Shown here: in pieces, positions 29,985 through 35,512 of the stretch
How positions within the stretch are numbered: position 1 is the first letter of the stretch
Layout of the letters: every line of letters starts with the position of its first letter
Assembly (NCBI GenBank): GCA_000146045.2
Contig: BK006938.2
Span: 352,001-416,000 of the forward strand
Length of the DNA: 64,000 nt
Direction of reading: 5' to 3'
Source: TPA_inf: Saccharomyces
Lineage: Eukaryota
Position numbers and translations under genes: made by a program
Notes under the pieces: model-generated
Told to the model about the DNA's origin: nothing
Seen by the model: the letters and a program-made list of their open reading frames with translations, nothing else
The model's database searches: none

Positions 29985-32081
29985 CTAAATGAAAGCTAGA
30001 GGAAGAGCGGCAGCGAGCCACACCAATTTTCCTACTGCTTCAATGTTTGCGCTGCCTTCCATGATTAATGAAATGCTGGCAGATGATGTAATGGCTCCTG
30101 TTGATACAGCAGCAATGGAATGCTTTGATGTGATAAATGCGTTAGTAGTGGTGGTCGTGAAGGAATTTGTATAATGAATGGCACTGGATTGACTAGAATA
30201 ATCTTTAGTTGAGGTACCAGAAACACTTTCTAGAGAGGCAGCTGCAGAAATATTGTCCTCAATACTGTGATTCATTACGGAAGCAGTTGATTGAACGTTA
30301 CTTATAGTAGACGTTGATGCAGGAGAAGTCATAAATGCAGATTGTTTGGTGATGGTAGTGTCTTTGGGACCCGAGTAATTTGGGTTCCCAACCTCAGACT
30401 GAATGTTAATGTTTGAAGTTACTAGTGTTGTATGGCGAGTCGAGTCAGTAACTCTACTGACAATATCGGTGACGCTTGCGTGAGCTGATGCATAAGTTCT
30501 ATCTAATGTGATTGGATGAGCTGAGGAAGATGAGCCGACTAAACCATTTTCACTGGCTAGAGTCGTTGGGTCTGCTGAAGTTATGCTAGGATATGAAGAT
30601 TTAGTTGATTGGAATGCGTCAACTACAGAAACAGAACTTTGGGTCTTCGAATCATTGCTGCTAACTGGCATATTAGGCTTGATTATACTTGTTGCGCTTG
30701 ACCTACTCGAGGAAGCCGAATCAACTGGGGTTAAAGTTACAATCGAAGAACTTGAAGTGGCCGAAATTCCTTGCTGTCTAGAAAGGCTTAGACTTTCCGA
30801 CGCAATTGGAATGCCCGTGGAAGTTGATCCGGTCGAAGCTGTTGGATATACTGGGCTATTCGAGACAGCGAAAGTGCTTGGGTCTACTTGAGATCTTTGA
30901 ATGGATGAGACGCTCAAATCAGCTGAACCAGTTGAGGAAACCATATCAGTTAGACTAGATGATACTGTTTGGGTATCTTGGCTGGTTGAAGTGGTTGAAA
31001 CCCTTAGAATGATTGTGTCAGAGAAAGTAGCTAGATCTGTTGAAGTAGTTGGACCACTTGGTCTGGTTGAATAAACTGAGGTTGAACTGACAATAAAACT
31101 GGTTGGTTCAGATGAAGTTGAACTAACTACAGAACTAGCTGGATCAATTGAGGCGCTACTGATGATAGTAGTTGCACCGCTTGAACTAACGATGGAGCTA
31201 ACTGGATCAATTGAAGTAGTTTGAGCCGCTAAAGTAGCTGAACCGTTTGAATTAGCAGAAATAGTCACAGTGCTTGAGCTAGTTGGGTAAGATGAAGTTA
31301 AACTGACAACAGAACTAGCCGGATCAACTGGAGCGGAACTGACTACAGAACTAGTTGGATCAACTGAAGTAGTTTGAACGGTCGAGGTAGTTGAGTCAGC
31401 TGAAGTAGTTGGGTCTGCTGAAGTTGAACTGATAACAGAAGTGGTTGGGTCAACTGAAGTAGCAACGTCACTTGAGCTAGTTTGATCAACTGAGGTTGAA
31501 ATGACTACAGAAGTAGTTGGGTCAACTAAAGTAGTCACAGCGCTTGAACTAGTTGGATCTGCTGAAGTAGCCACGTCACTTGAGCTAGTTGGATCTGTTG
31601 ATGTGGTTACCTCGTCAGAGCTTCTTGTACGATACATACCAGCAACACTTGATGAGGCATGTGGACCAACTGTTGTAGTAGACTCAATTAAAGATGTAGA
31701 GTCCGTGGAAGTGGAAATCACGACAGAGATATTTAGACTTGTTGAAGTAGTAATATCGTTTGAACTGACGAGAGAAGTAGTTGGTTCAATTGAAGTGGTT
31801 TGAACGGTTGAAGTAATCACATCGCTCGAGCTAGTTGGGTCAATTGAAGTGGAACTAACTGCAAAAGTAGTGGAATTGGCCAAAGTGGAATTGCCGATGT
31901 TGTTACTTGGACCAGCTGAAGTGGTTTGAACGGTCGAGGTAGTTGAGTCAGCTGAAGTAGTTGGGTCTGCTGAAGTTGAACTGATAACAGAAGTAGTTGG
32001 GTCAACTGAAGTAGCAACGTCACTTGAGCTAGTTAGATCTGTTGATGTGGTTACCTCGTCAGAGCTTCTTGTACGATACAT
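29985..32081 (-). CDS. PRM7: PRM7, a pheromone-regulated, Ser/Thr-rich, repetitive (flocculin-like) predicted cell-surface protein. It is 698 aa from the first ATG at 32081. The frame stays open a further 159 codons up to 32558 and is in frame with BSC1 across a single TAA.
   Basis: An extremely S/T-rich repeat protein (TTSVDPTTSADP... units). It has a hydrophobic C-terminal tail (LVWLAAALPLAFI), consistent with a TM or GPI signal. The first ATG in the frame is at 32079-32081. Confidence 0.7.
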   Translation of the reverse strand: MYRTRSSDEVTTSTDLTSSSDVATSVDPTTSVISSTSADPTTSADSTTSTVQTTSAGPSNNIGNSTLANSTTFAVSSTSIDPTSSSDVITSTVQTTSIEPTTSLVSSNDITTSTSLNISVVISTSTDSTSLIESTTTVGPHASSSVAGMYRTRSSDEVTTSTDPTSSSDVATSADPTSSSAVTTLVDPTTSVVISTSVDQTSSSDVATSVDPTTSVISSTSADPTTSADSTTSTVQTTSVDPTSSVVSSAPVDPASSVVSLTSSYPTSSSTVTISANSNGSATLAAQTTSIDPVSSIVSSSGATTIISSASIDPASSVVSSTSSEPTSFIVSSTSVYSTRPSGPTTSTDLATFSDTIILRVSTTSTSQDTQTVSSSLTDMVSSTGSADLSVSSIQRSQVDPSTFAVSNSPVYPTASTGSTSTGIPIASESLSLSRQQGISATSSSSIVTLTPVDSASSSRSSATSIIKPNMPVSSNDSKTQSSVSVVDAFQSTKSSYPSITSADPTTLASENGLVGSSSSAHPITLDRTYASAHASVTDIVSRVTDSTRHTTLVTSNINIQSEVGNPNYSGPKDTTITKQSAFMTSPASTSTISNVQSTASVMNHSIEDNISAAASLESVSGTSTKDYSSQSSAIHYTNSFTTTTTNAFITSKHSIAAVSTGAITSSASISLIMEGSANIEAVGKLVWLAAALPLAFI

Positions 32082-32097
32082 AGCCGCTAAACTTGAT
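31366..32097. repeat. Intragenic segmental duplication in PRM7. Copy A (31366-31650) and copy B (31921-32097) are more than 95% identical about 555 bp apart; copy B lacks an internal segment of about 105 bp. A third, diverged relative lies in BSC1 (about 32700-32770).
   Basis: The strings gtttgaacggtcgaggtagttgagtcagctgaagtagttgggtctgctgaagttgaactgataacagaagt and gttgatgtggttacctcgtcagagcttcttgtacgatacata occur in both copies. The protein motif H(A)SSS-A-MYRTRSSDEVTTSTD occurs twice in PRM7 and once, diverged (HTSSSVADIYRSRTSTDVTTL), in BSC1. Confidence 0.85.
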
Positions 32098-32600
32098 GAG
32101 GCGTGTGGATCATCCGATGTAGTATACTCAATTGAAGATGTAGAGTCTGTGGAAGTAGAAATGGTAACAGAGCTACTTGGATCAGCTGGGCTAGTTTGAA
32201 CGGCCGAAGTAGTTGAATCAGCTGGAGTAGTTGGGTTAATTGAAGTAGTCACAGCATTTGAACTAGTTGGGTCTGCTGAACTTGAACTGATAACAGAGCT
32301 ACTTAGATCAGCTGAACTTGAACTGACTACGGAAGTAGTTGGATCAGCTGAAGTAGTTTGAACGGTCGAGGTAGTTGGGTCAGCTGAAGTAGTTGGGTCA
32401 ACTGAAGTAGTTGGATCAACTGAAGTAGAACTGACTATAGAACTAGTTGGGTCAACTGAAGTAGTTGGATCAACAGAAGTAGTTTGAACGGTCGAGGTAG
32501 TTGGATCAGCTGAAGTATTTGGGTCAACTGAAGTAGTTGGGTCAACTGAAGTAGTCACAGCGCTTGAACTAGTTGGGTCTTCTGAACTTGAACTTACTAC

Positions 32601-33587
32601 TTAAGTGGTTGGATCAACAGAAGTAGTTTGAATGGTTGAACTGGTTACATCGCTTGAACTACTAGAGTCACTTGAAGTGAAACTGCTGAAAGGACTAGTT
32701 GAAGCTGCTAATGTGGTGACATCAGTAGATGTTCTTGAACGATAAATATCGGCTACGCTTGATGAAGTATGTGAGTCAACGGAAGTAGTAAAATCAATGG
32801 ATGTAGTGGAAGAGCTTTTCACAGTAGATGACGTAGTAGTGGAAGTTTTCGTAGAGGATGAAGTAGTAGAGGATGAAGTAGTAGAGGATGAAGTAGTAGA
32901 GGATGAAGTAGTAGAGGATGAAGTAGTAGAGGATGAAGTAGTAGAGGATGAAGTAGTAGAGGATGAAGTAGTAGAGGATGAAGTAGTAGAGGATGAAGTA
33001 GTAGAGGATGAAGTAGTAGAGGATGAAGTAGTAGTGGATGAAGTAGTAGTGGATGAAGTAGTAGTGGATGAAGTAGTAATGGATGAAGTAGTAATGGATG
33101 AAGACGAGGCTTTTGTACAAGTGCCATCATTGTTTCCCTTGCACTGGTAGGTCCAATAAAATCCAGGGAAATCCGTTTGTGAGTGGCCTTGATTGTCATA
33201 ATTGTTACAACCTGTCGATAAATCGAAGGTGGTTGTCCCCCATTGCCAAGTTTGCCAGTACTGAGCAGCATCACCTTGTAGATATTCGAACTGGATTTGG
33301 AAATTTGGCATCCAAACTGTGCAACCGTCAGAAGAAGGGTAAGCATAAACCTGAAAAGTGGATGTAAAATCTGTTGGATCACTGATTAGGTATGTCTTCT
33401 CATTTTTGCCGTAAAGTTGTACGGTGCTTGAGGGACCGTTGACACCAATAATCTTTAAAGACCATAAATATTTCAAAGGGATATCTTTTACGGCTTTGAC
33501 ATGAATAGTAATCTGGTATGTGTTATCCTTGACCCATGATACGGAAGTAACATCCATATCATAATGTAGTATATTCTGTTGGCTCAT
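32601..33587 (-). CDS. BSC1: BSC1 (bypass of stop codon), a Flo11-like Ser/Thr-rich protein, 328 aa from the first ATG. It ends at a TAA (32601-32603) immediately followed in frame by the PRM7 frame.
   Basis: MSQQNILHYDMDVTSVSWVKDNTYQ... followed by (STTSS)n tandem repeats. The first ATG is at 33585-33587; the track ORF starts at a TTG at 33710. Confidence 0.7.
   Translation of the reverse strand: MSQQNILHYDMDVTSVSWVKDNTYQITIHVKAVKDIPLKYLWSLKIIGVNGPSSTVQLYGKNEKTYLISDPTDFTSTFQVYAYPSSDGCTVWMPNFQIQFEYLQGDAAQYWQTWQWGTTTFDLSTGCNNYDNQGHSQTDFPGFYWTYQCKGNNDGTCTKASSSSITTSSITTSSTTTSSTTTSSTTTSSSTTSSSTTSSSTTSSSTTSSSTTSSSTTSSSTTSSSTTSSSTTSSSTTSSSTTSSSTKTSTTTSSTVKSSSTTSIDFTTSVDSHTSSSVADIYRSRTSTDVTTLAASTSPFSSFTSSDSSSSSDVTSSTIQTTSVDPTT
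32851..33104. repeat. A perfect-to-near-perfect 15-bp tandem minisatellite inside BSC1 (unit GTAGAGGATGAAGTA). It has about 12 copies of GTAGAGGATGAAGTA, then 3 of GTAGTGGATGAAGTA, then 2 of GTAATGGATGAAGTA. It encodes (STTSS)n on the minus strand.
   Basis: Counted directly from the sequence. The overlapping track ORFs 32794..33120 (YYFIHYYF...) and 32797..33150 (DEVVEDEVVE...) are frame artifacts of this array. Confidence 0.95.
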
Positions 33588-35512
33588 GTGCCAGTTGAAA
33601 TCCAAATTTGGACAACCATTGATAGCAACGCTTTCGTCTCTTTTGCTTAGATCAAATGAAGGGCTCACCTTGTCATCAATTCTATCAGCAGTCGCTGAAT
33701 TTGTGAGCAAGGCCGCAAATAGGAGGCAAAATGATATTAGTAGTTTTCTTATGAATGATGTGGATACCTATTTTACACTTTTGCAACAAGGGGAGGAAAA
33801 TTGCCAAGACCATCATGACATTGGAGGAAGTGATTTGCTTCTCTTAAATATAAAATAATTAAACGATCATGGAGATGCAGCGAACTAATGTGAAAAATTT
33901 TTCTTTCCAGTAGTATCGGTTATTCTGTAAGCATAGAATCGGGTATTAGTGGCTTGTTCCGAGCTTTTTTTCTTTGCCAATAAGAAAACAAGTAAAATGC
34001 AACGTGCAAATGCTGATCTGATCTCGCCTGGGCCAGTTTTATCGTCATGTGCGCGTGTAGGCACGAAAAAAAAGAAAAGACCGCTACCTCTCCTTCTAAA
34101 ATGACAGGAGGAGAATATAAGGTTTGGCAGCCCCTTGAAAGAGCCGCAGGAACCAAAAAAAAAAGAAGGAAAGTTTATTTTTTTCTTTTTCCAAAAGACT
34201 TTTTAAGATGTTTGTCAGCAAGATAATACAGGACCTACACGACTATCAGTCACAGCCAGAGAAACGTTTGTCGTATGATGGCAAAATATTTTTCCCACAA
34301 CTTTGAAATTATTTTCAAATATGGCAGAACAGTTTAACATTTGGTTTCAAGAGGTAGCACAAGTTCTTGAATAGTATTTGTTCGCGTTAAGATGGAAGCA
34401 GGCCAAATGCCCCAATAATCTAATAACCGTATTTTCTATGCTAAAGGAGGAACGAACACTCGGTCTTGTACAGGCAGCTCTAAAAGGAAAATTTCCATCC
34501 CCCCAGGCCAAGAAAATCAGAATCATATGGCCCCCTTCCATTCTAACGGAATAGTATATCAAAGAAATAATGTTTACGTAAGCCATAGACAAGCGATATA
34601 ATCTTTTTTATCCTTAAACTAGGTGCTTCATTAAGAAAGAAGAAGAAAAGAAGAAAGTACGACAAAGACTCCCCGCTGGACAATAAACGGGGGCGGCAGG
34701 TGTTAATTCCGAATTGAAATTTAAATTTGACATAAGCAAAGTTTAAAGTTTTTTTTTTCCAGTTCTTTTTTCCCATCGTTTTTTTTTCTAGAAGCCGGGT
34801 TTTTCACCGTCAAAAAATTTCCTAAAAAAGATCTGTCAATCATTAAGTTTTGCTTTTTCGGCTTTTAAGCCATGCTTTCAGGCAAAAATTAAGATTTCTT
34901 CGTAAAGATCGGAGCCTTACGCCCAAGAAGCAACTGGCCGTAAAATTTTTTCTTCGATCGGGTGGCAAATGGAACAGAAGATCATGAGTAGAAGGAAAAG
35001 TAAACAAAGAATTGCGTCGGTCAACCGGTTGTTGCTGCGTGCTTCAGCGGGTGATAAATAAAAGATTTCCTATCTGAGTAATCGATGACACAAGCGGTCT
35101 GCGCTCGGTCGCTTCCAAGCCTTAACAAAGTTTTTACTTTATGGTTTTTAATAAATAAATAAAAAGAAACGTGGATTTGGATAGCAGAAAGCCTCGAAGA
35201 TCATTTTATCAATGAAATTTTATGGTTAACACTTTCAAGACTCCGATTTTCTCTGCTACGTGAAATTTTAGGTTGCGAAAAGAATACTACCGGGAATACT
35301 AGGAGTGTGGAAGAAAAGAAATGGAAAAGAAAAGGAGAAGTGGTCATTCTTCACATCTCATTGTCTTCCTCCTGTAAAGATTTTAGCTTTTTTATAAATT
35401 AAGATTAAGATTGTAGCGTGATGTTCTGTTACTGTCATTTTTGATTGGCCAATGACTGATTATAACAGAAGACCAGTTTTCTATGTATTATTGTCCGACA
35501 AGTCAGGAACCT

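Follow-up and report, generated by a model that had tools for sequence, protein, structure and literature searches.

BSC1 and PRM7 most probably derive from one Flo11-family adhesin gene that the S288C-type allele carries in split form

The annotated yeast genes BSC1 and PRM7 lie side by side on the minus strand of the 64,000-nucleotide stretch of chromosome IV analyzed here (the window), in one reading frame that a single TAA interrupts. This arrangement raises the question of whether the locus holds two genes, one gene whose stop codon is purposely bypassed, or one gene that has been broken. The original prediction, made from the sequence of the window, offered programmed readthrough or a strain-polymorphic composite gene. 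Our results support the latter: BSC1, the so-called intergenic stretch, and PRM7 are very probably one ancestral Flo11-family adhesin gene (IMI1), which in the S288C-type allele has been split by a derived TCA-to-TAA change and has also undergone an ATG-to-ATA change. The core of this finding is not new: a single gene with a stop codon splitting it in S288C is how the locus is already described in SGD-era literature, by Kowalec et al. 2015, and in a 2025 core-genome preprint. We consider the locus to be a segregating null allele, real and already known (features in Table 1).

Table 1. Features of the BSC1/PRM7 locus, in window coordinates
Feature	Positions	Strand	Remarks
Locus order SIR2-NAT1-PRM7-BSC1-PUS9-GPR1			S288C-type chromosome IV
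Upstream intergenic region, BSC1 frame to PUS9	33768..35512	minus	~1.75 kb; presumed shared promoter
ATA (Ile) replacing the ancestral ATG start	33750..33752	minus	start-codon loss
Cryptic signal-peptide segment (M/I)RKLLISFCLLFAALLTNSATA / DRIDD	33687..33752	minus	in frame with BSC1, ahead of its annotated ATG
Complete Flo11 adhesin domain (PF10182, profile positions 1-151)	33165..33617	minus	E 1.6e-69 with the upstream extension, read from 33752
Annotated BSC1 (YDL037C) coding region	32604..33587	minus	328 codons, ATG at 33587, then TAA
Annotated BSC1 ATG	33585..33587	minus	conserved Met within the Flo11 domain (NWHM); ancestral start lay upstream
15-nt tandem array, SSTTS-type run	32851..33103	minus	16.9 copies, 99% matches; copy number strain-variable
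TAA nonsense codon between annotated BSC1 and PRM7	32601..32603	minus	derived TCA(Ser)-to-TAA change within repeat array
So-called intergenic stretch	32082..32600	minus	173 sense codons (519 nt), same 18-nt Ser/Thr repeat array
Annotated PRM7 (YDL039C)	29985..32081	minus	698 codons plus TAG stop
GPI-attachment-like C-terminal signal EGSANIEAVGKLVWLAAALPLAFI	29988..30059	minus	small omega-region residues, polar spacer, 13-residue hydrophobic tail

The geometry of the interrupted frame proved to be as predicted, with BSC1 ending at the TAA of 32601-32603 and 871 stop-free codons following it. The minus-strand codons around the stop are TCT GTT GAT CCA ACC ACT TAA GTA GTA AGT TCA, and the sense codons beyond it run across the PRM7 ATG (32081), 173 codons past the stop, up to a TAG at 29987-29985. 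At the local base composition, the probability of finding no stop in 871 codons is ~2e-19, and each of the other five frames of this span contains 23 to 109 stops, which together exclude an open frame that arose by chance. The "intergenic" stretch is itself coding-like in composition, with a GC content of 0.435 versus 0.35 to 0.37 in true flanking intergenic DNA, and its other two forward frames contain 8 and 21 stops. An ORF start that had been placed at 32558 is correct as a coordinate but has no biological meaning, being merely the first GTG chosen by a bacterial-code ORF lister. The lengths and order of the ORFs match those of the syntenic loci in other S. cerevisiae assemblies.

The same kind of repeat had been predicted on both sides of the stop, and its 18-nt (6-codon) register, TTSVDP / TT(stop)VVS / SSSEDP, indeed runs unbroken across the TAA. 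A paralogous repeat unit reads TTSVVS where the interrupted unit reads TT(stop)VVS, and this unit, together with the in-register position of the TAA within the array, indicates that the ancestral codon specified Ser. Tandem arrays with periods of 15, 18, 36, and 72 nt occur in the composite frame, of whose 1255 codons 333 specify Ser and 244 Thr. Depending on the allele, the part after the junction is 543 to 1128 codons long, and the BSC1 product ranges from 293 to 333 aa among strains, the difference lying in the SSTTS-type run. The frame contains, in other words, the central Ser/Thr-rich stalk of variable-length tandem repeats expected of a Flo11-family adhesin.

Comparison of the interrupted codon across strains, which the original prediction had proposed as a check, shows that it is polymorphic. 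The homologous codon is TCA in six other S. cerevisiae sequences (L001 and L012 to L016) and TAA in L002 to L004 and L006 to L009. The Vin13 sequence (L012) is one base apart from the window, carrying TCA in place of TAA on the same ACC ACT background, and when metagenome contigs were scanned for the junction, an approach free of protein-length bias, 3/3 matches carried TCA. An intact allele also exists. L016, which is 99.3% identical to the window over 9.6 kb of flank, has TCA and ATG where the window has TAA and ATA, and its uninterrupted 882-aa ORF comprises the ATG, a signal peptide, Flo11 profile positions 1-151, Ser/Thr repeats, and the same C-terminal tail.

These observations bear out the idea of a strain-polymorphic composite gene, and the literature bears out the claim that the region is one ORF in W303. 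[quoted passage not shown]" The pair is likewise listed with HO and HAP1 as a potential null allele in S288C in a passage of PMC12157680. Our strain counts give no estimate of allele frequency because the loci were found via short BSC1 products, which biases the sample of TAA alleles, and because long Ser/Thr-rich proteins were not returned. The protein search with the N-terminal domain yielded no full-length (~1200 aa) relatives, its matches all being ≤410 aa; the C-terminal protein query yielded a single 319-aa fragment, and an exhaustive representative search yielded three short matches. The collection searched lacked the exact S288C BSC1 and PRM7 sequences, and long Ser/Thr-rich proteins were seemingly not retrievable from it.

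A second lesion lies at the other end of BSC1. The RKLLISFCLLFAALLTNSATA segment, whose hydropathy peaks at 3.0, is a signal peptide as judged by sequence rules and hydropathy, and in other strains the called proteins P0001 to P0006 begin with it. In the window its coding segment begins with ATA, not ATG, a state shared only with L008 and L009 among the alleles compared. The site reads ATG in L001 to L007, L012, L013, and L016, and the L010 orthologue, which comes from a distant Saccharomyces species, likewise begins at the corresponding ATG (MKKLLITF...), each of these having a secretion signal headed by a start codon. The reading of the adjoining domain changes accordingly with the start chosen: annotated BSC1 alone matches the PF10182 profile only at positions 13-151, and similarity to 4UYR, the crystal structure of Flo11A (E 2e-89), already sets in 13 residues before the annotated Met. 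The corresponding NWHM Met is likewise internal in Flo11 itself (P0011 and P0012). The annotated protein is thereby missing the signal peptide and 13 Flo11-domain residues, one of them a conserved Cys, and a protein started at this Met would not have the secretion signal needed for disulfide formation.

At the far end of the composite frame, the C-terminal pattern ..MEGSANIEAVGK-LVWLAAALPLAFI fits the rules for GPI attachment, a judgment drawn from sequence rules and conservation, and the tail is nearly identical in an orthologue fragment from another species (P0039, 64% identity). The ATG-to-ATA change conceals the signal peptide and leaves the annotated Flo11 domain incomplete, and we therefore regard a secreted, GPI-anchored adhesin as the most likely form of the native protein.

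From N- to C-terminus, the ancestral protein that we propose would have consisted of a signal peptide, the Flo11 A domain, a lengthy Ser/Thr-rich repeat stalk, and a GPI-attachment signal. The TCA(Ser)-to-TAA change at 32603-32601 would have split the ORF, and the ATG-to-ATA change at 33752-33750 would have cost the gene its start codon and thereby the signal peptide. BSC1 and PRM7 would then be by-products of annotation rules, the former beginning at a Met inside the Flo11 domain and the latter at the first Met past the stop. The downstream frame would still be open simply because the nonsense haplotype is young and changes in repeat number come in multiples of the 18-nt unit, in which case no selection for readthrough is needed. 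An allele of this kind would be functionally null for the ancestral surface function.

The age of the haplotype can be gauged from the last 1200 nt, in which the TAA haplotypes show 0 to 6 differences from the window and the TCA haplotype L001 shows 17. So recent a haplotype has not had long enough for its downstream frame to decay. The dN/dS between species is 0.05 in the Flo11 region (versus L010) and 0.30 at the C-terminus (versus L011), and purifying selection has acted on the whole gene through most of its history. Within the species, values range from 0 to 0.8 on counts too small to be informative (0 to 17 differences per 1200 nt among strains).

The TAA is also not the only way in which the gene has been lost. 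At least five independent lesions besides it occur in the population: two nonsense changes (TCA to TGA at 32762-32760 in L006 and TCA to TAA at 32702-32700 in L013), a 2-bp deletion close to 32170 that five independent assemblies share, a 40-bp deletion (~31805-31766) lying between GTTCAAAC direct repeats in L002, L015, P0045, and P0055, and the loss of the start codon. The nonsense changes and deletions are all on other haplotypes. Among frame-shifting changes, only these two deletions, each present in several independent assemblies, entered the count; the frameshifts of L002 and L003 were accepted only in part as evidence of decay, since several look like single-base long-read assembly errors. 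In P0045, the junction itself is deleted. All three observed nonsense changes fell on TCA codons, which total 117. The notion that a Ser-rich ORF is unusually nonsense-prone was rejected, as 4.0% of single substitutions in it create a stop versus 5.7% in NAT1.

Could the two halves nevertheless have become separate functional genes after the split? BSC1 would then encode a cytosolic Flo11-domain protein, and PRM7, translated from an ATG of its own (32081) and perhaps also transcribed separately, would encode a membrane protein under pheromone regulation. The two are annotated separately, and available passages report separate phenotypes for bsc1 and prm7 deletions in S288C-derived strains, so the fragments may not be inert; PRM7 is also described as pheromone-regulated and is listed among mating genes. 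The PRM7 ATG, however, is the Met of a repeated internal module (..SSSLAAMYRTRSS..), of which the BSC1 copy reads Ile. The PRM7 N-terminus is not hydrophobic (maximum hydropathy, 0.3), leaving a protein with a GPI-like tail but no signal peptide, while annotated BSC1 is short of part of the solved Flo11 fold as well as of its secretion signal. The DNA between the two is coding-like repeat whose composition is not promoter-like. The passages on expression also tie the ORFs together: BSC1 and PRM7 co-vary in four unrelated datasets, and Tup1 peaks lie upstream of BSC1/PRM7 with joint regulation of both ORFs reported. One transcript probably covers both ORFs, and two functional genes seem unlikely to us. 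The region upstream of BSC1 (33768-35512) had no match to the consensus of an alpha1/Mcm1 (QP') element, whose genome-wide counts are at chance level.

Programmed readthrough would mean that a near-cognate tRNA decodes the UAA at a rate that is both regulated and useful, giving S288C both the 328-aa Bsc1 and a protein of ~1200 aa. BSC1 was reportedly named, in work by Namy et al. in 2003, after stop-codon bypass that exceeded background in a reporter, and if so, some full-length product may be made. The 871-codon open frame is in keeping with this proposal, as are L004 and L007, which retain the ATG, the TAA, and an open downstream frame. Against it, the stop arose from a Ser codon and is polymorphic, so that stop and extension are not conserved together: the six TCA sequences lack the TAA, and an intact allele exists. 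The open frame is already accounted for by the youth of the haplotype, and other strains have the gene broken by different lesions. Moreover, with the true start codon and signal peptide lost in the window allele, readthrough would still not restore the ancestral protein.

The context of the stop, ACU UAA GUA GUA, points in the same direction. It has none of the features of a leaky site (UGA or UAG, C at +4, or CAR-NBA). In yeast ribosome profiling (PMC8087045), UAA is the strongest terminator and UAAG is the tetranucleotide with the lowest readthrough. The neighboring bases found here, G at +4, C at -2, and a U at -1, each allow the least readthrough at their positions, and no combination terminates more efficiently in those data. 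The original prediction was right that the context is not CAR-YYA, although it understated how unfavorable the context is. No stimulatory RNA structure was found in the 120 nt after the stop (-19.5 kcal/mol, z = -0.68 versus shuffles), and BSC1 does not occur in the supplementary files examined from the yeast study that profiled readthrough. The programmed readthrough envisaged for this locus was thus not borne out, and we judge it highly improbable; any full-length product would presumably come from background-level readthrough alone.

In strains that combine the ATG, a single UAA, and an open frame (the YJM993-type L007 and L004), low-level or [PSI+]/eRF-dependent readthrough might produce a complete adhesin, making adhesion switchable by termination efficiency. 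If this were true, the product would carry the signal peptide, the Flo11 domain, and the GPI tail, but we give the idea little chance. The idea that the codon was wrongly sequenced or assembled in the reference, which has nothing in its favor beyond the general difficulty of assembling repeats, can be dismissed as next to impossible because the identical TAA and flanks appear in seven other independent assemblies obtained by short-read, long-read, and metagenome methods.

A single split adhesin gene, the reading we prefer, has practical consequences. BSC1 and PRM7 should be treated as a single locus in expression, QTL, and deletion studies, and the locus is a clear case of repeated adhesin-gene loss by different mutations within one species. 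The second lesion, ATG to ATA, also bears on the published cytoplasmic description of Imi1. IMI1 of W303 (Kowalec et al. 2015, FEMS Yeast Res 15:fov048) is the same locus, its continuous ORF being made up of BSC1, the "intergenic" stretch, and PRM7. Published work places Imi1 in the cytoplasm when it is expressed from the tetO promoter with a C-terminal RFP tag and reports it as undetectable from its own promoter. In contrast to that description, most alleles compared here have a signal peptide upstream of the annotated ATG, and there is a GPI-like tail, which a C-terminal tag would mask. We consider it more likely that Imi1 is natively a secreted, alpha-cell-linked, GPI-anchored adhesin, and that the cytoplasmic result stems from internal-ATG, C-terminally tagged constructs, than that adhesion is switched by termination efficiency.

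Compared with FLO11/MUC1, the gene has the same layout of signal peptide, A domain, Ser/Thr-rich repeats, and hydrophobic C-terminal signal, and a long upstream region and variable repeat number are also common to both. The A domains are alike (E 2e-89 to the Flo11A chain 4UYR), with a Flo11A construct 76% identical to the query. BSC1/PRM7 differs in lying at another locus, on chromosome IV between NAT1 and PUS9, in its 18-nt TSVDPT-type repeats, in being disabled in the reference strain, and in its reported alpha-cell-specific or pheromone-linked expression.

The programmed-readthrough genes PDE2, BSC4, and IMP3 likewise have two in-frame ORFs with one stop between them, and the BSC1/PRM7 locus is said to have been found along with readthrough genes in the 2003 genomic screen of Namy et al. 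The stops of BSC4 and PDE2 are followed by CAA-type hexanucleotides (CAA-CUA and CAA-GAA, respectively), whereas that of BSC1 reads UAA-GUA-GUA and is polymorphic. The S288C null alleles of HO and HAP1 resemble the present one in that the gene is disabled in the laboratory reference and intact in other strains, and the flo8-1 nonsense mutation is an S288C null allele of an adhesion-related gene. Unlike these three, the BSC1/PRM7 allele has taken two hits, a start loss and a nonsense change, and unlike other S288C nulls, its TAA is found also in YJM clinical and wild isolates and not in laboratory strains alone.

The TAA that ends annotated BSC1 on the minus strand (TCT GTT GAT CCA ACC ACT TAA GTA GTA AGT TCA) is followed directly by 871 sense codons, which run through the PRM7 ATG to the PRM7 TAG; the original prediction that the two genes form a single frame broken by one TAA held at every coordinate that it gave. 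This openness is not due to chance, given that the probability of meeting no stop in 871 codons of the local composition is ~2e-19 and that the remaining five frames over the same span contain 23 to 109 stops apiece. The ORF start proposed at 32558 turned out to be merely the first GTG taken by a bacterial-code ORF lister. The neighboring ORFs (562 aa, 854 aa, PRM7, BSC1, 462 aa, 961 aa, in window order) match SIR2-NAT1-...-PUS9-GPR1 of syntenic loci in other S. cerevisiae assemblies, which identifies the window as the chromosome IV locus of S288C type. Its annotation has a history of instability: YDL039C was originally a 115-aa product (P0075, CAA98597, etc.; cluster of P0038), and the present 698-aa PRM7 came from later merging with the former YDL038C. 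Neither BSC1 nor PRM7 is represented by its exact S288C sequence in the protein collection searched.

Features of the BSC1/PRM7 locus and their carriers (L, other sequences of the locus; P, database proteins)
Feature	Position	Strand	Details or carriers	Basis
Upstream intergenic region	33768-35512		unusually long, about 1.75 kb	
ATG->ATA (start)	33752-33750	minus	window, L008, L009	comparison with other strains
BSC1 (annotated)	ATG 33587, TAA 32603-32601	minus	328 codons	frame translation
15-nt tandem array	32851-33103		16.9 copies, 99% matches, SSTTS runs	
TCA->TGA	32762-32760		L006	
TCA->TAA (second site)	32702-32700		L013	
TCA->TAA (junction)	32603-32601		window, L002-4, L006-9	
2-bp deletion	about 32170		strains CPI, AMP, BBM, two ENA assemblies	
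PRM7 (annotated)	ATG 32081, TAG 29987-29985	minus		frame translation
40-bp frameshifting deletion	about 31805-31766		L002, L015, P0045, P0055	

The Ser/Thr-rich region consists of tandem 18-nt (6-codon) units, and reading them in register across the stop (TTSVDP / TT*VVS / SSSEDP / TSSSAV / TTSVDP) places the stop where the repeat has Ser. A paralogous unit later in the window is TTSVVS, and strain Vin13 (L012) has ACC ACT TCA GTA GTA at the homologous codons, one base from the window. TCA also occupies the junction in L001, L013, L014, L015, and L016, bearing out the proposal that the composite gene is strain polymorphic. Register, paralogue, and alleles together identify the TAA as a C-to-A change of a TCA Ser codon within a continuous coding repeat. 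TAA-bearing loci were found via short annotated BSC1 products, so that TAA at 8 of 14 junctions is not an allele frequency; a scan of metagenome contigs that left the codon's middle base free, and was thus unbiased by product length, gave three S. cerevisiae contigs, each of which has TCA. Protein-database searches never returned long Ser/Thr-rich proteins (full-length Flo11, PRM7, Imi1-like), though Imi1-like products of 700 to 1100 aa are called on the retrieved contigs. In one natural allele, P0045 (ONH79876.1), module 1 (VDSHTSSS) is fused straight to module 2 (..LAAMYRTRSS), recombination between these paralogous modules having removed the junction altogether and the stop with it. W303 may have lost the stop by a similar route.

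Programmed readthrough of the BSC1 TAA is not supported. BSC1 is said to have been named after a reporter assay by Namy et al. in 2003 showed bypass of its stop, and some leakiness is possible. Yet readthrough in the window allele would only lengthen a product begun from an internal Met and devoid of a secretion signal, and the stop context is unfavorable. Yeast ribosome profiling ranks readthrough as UGA > UAG > UAA, with C > U > A > G at +4, A > G > U > C at -2, and A > G > C > U at -1, and UAAG is the lowest-readthrough combination (PMC8087045). The window's ACU UAA G has the least permissive value at each of these four main determinants. The CAR-NBA hexanucleotide that accompanies the stops of BSC4, PDE2, and TMV is absent after that of BSC1, as the remark that its context is not the classic CAR-YYA had anticipated, and no unusual RNA structure was found in the 120 nt after the stop (z = -0.68). 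The original prediction thus stands as to a strain-polymorphic composite gene, given the TCA alleles and the intact L016, and is not supported as to programmed readthrough, given the least permissive context and the derived stop.

That the gene is split was already known from the continuous ORF IMI1 in W303 (Kowalec et al. 2015, as cited in later papers), the many PRM7/BSC1 deletions and duplications in de novo assemblies of 18 founder strains, and the far larger S. paradoxus gene, termed "fused." We did not find the start-codon loss or the signal-peptide-to-GPI architecture of the intact allele described in the literature accessible here.

L016, one of the three contigs from the metagenome scan, shares 99.3% identity with the window across 9.6 kb of flank and contains an unbroken 882-aa ORF with the N-terminus MRKLLISFCLLFAALLTNSATA, a Flo11 domain that covers the Pfam profile from end to end (1-151, E 2e-69), a shorter repeat stalk, and the C-terminus ...MEGSANIEAVGKLVWLAAALPLAFI, a tail identical to that of PRM7. 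Annotated BSC1 matches the profile from position 13 only, and the match to crystal structure 4UYR (Flo11A) begins 13 residues upstream of its Met; the annotated start cuts these 13 residues off the domain. The upstream frame is open to 33767 and, with no ATG, encodes VSTSF-I-RKLLISFCLLFAALLTNSATA followed by DRIDD, a predicted textbook signal peptide of 22 residues that has basic residues and a hydrophobic core of 13 residues and carries A-x-A ahead of its cleavage point (sequence rules and conservation underlie both this and the GPI signal). L001-L007, L012, L013, and L016 have ATG where the window, L008, and L009 alone have ATA. Because the L010 orthologue fragment, from a distant Saccharomyces species (73% nucleotide identity, dS ~1.6), begins MKKLLITFYLLLATLL at the homologous ATG, ATG is ancestral and ATA is the derived state, in which the start codon has been lost. 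BSC1's annotated ATG corresponds to the conserved Met of an NWHM motif, a residue that is internal here as it is in Flo11. PRM7's annotated ATG encodes the Met within a large module (..SSSLAAMYRTRSSDEV..) that is repeated 148 codons on and reads ADIYRSRTS in its BSC1 copy; hydropathy revealed no hydrophobic segment at the PRM7 N-terminus. The start loss and predicted architecture bear on the description of Imi1 as cytoplasmic, which came from a tetO-driven, C-terminally RFP-tagged construct, the protein being undetectable from its own promoter.

Formerly under constraint, the gene is now disappearing within S. cerevisiae through several independent lesions. dN/dS is 0.085/1.60 = 0.05 over the signal peptide and Flo11 region (window versus L010) and 0.22/0.73 = 0.30 over the last 141 aligned codons (window versus L011, also non-cerevisiae), and the GPI-like tail is nearly invariant between species. 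Among the tabulated lesions, the 40-bp deletion, between GTTCAAAC direct repeats, occurs in no fewer than four assemblies or proteins and looks like a microhomology-mediated allele; some of the frameshifts seen in long-read assemblies are likely to be errors. L010:1460-2293 (Logan contig SRR31481540_798298) has an in-frame stop at a conserved Trp inside the Flo11 domain (QTWQ*GTTTF), past which the frame remains open; either an independent loss in that species or a read error could account for it. Over the last 1200 nt, TAA haplotypes differ from the window at 0 to 6 positions versus 17 for the TCA haplotype L001, so the nonsense haplotype is young. Its youth, together with repeat-number changes in multiples of the 18-nt unit, explains the 709 to 1128 codons open past the stop in L004 and L006-L009, and translation need not be invoked. 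Copy number of the 15-nt array also varies by strain, giving BSC1 products of 293 to 333 aa.

BSC1 and PRM7 shift together in thi2-deletion cells (-1.40 and -1.29), in a SUMO-chain mutant (-0.62 and -0.95), and in pkh1 and pkh3 mutants, where they were called "two contiguous genes." Both behave as alpha-specific and Tup1-bound, with two to three strong ChIP peaks upstream of BSC1, and the 519-nt "intergenic" stretch is coding-like (GC 0.435, versus 0.35-0.37 in true flanks). This coregulation, peak placement, and composition, all of them indirect evidence, fit one transcription unit driven from the region upstream of BSC1. No alpha1/Mcm1 consensus element was found in that region, whose length is reminiscent of the large promoter of FLO11.
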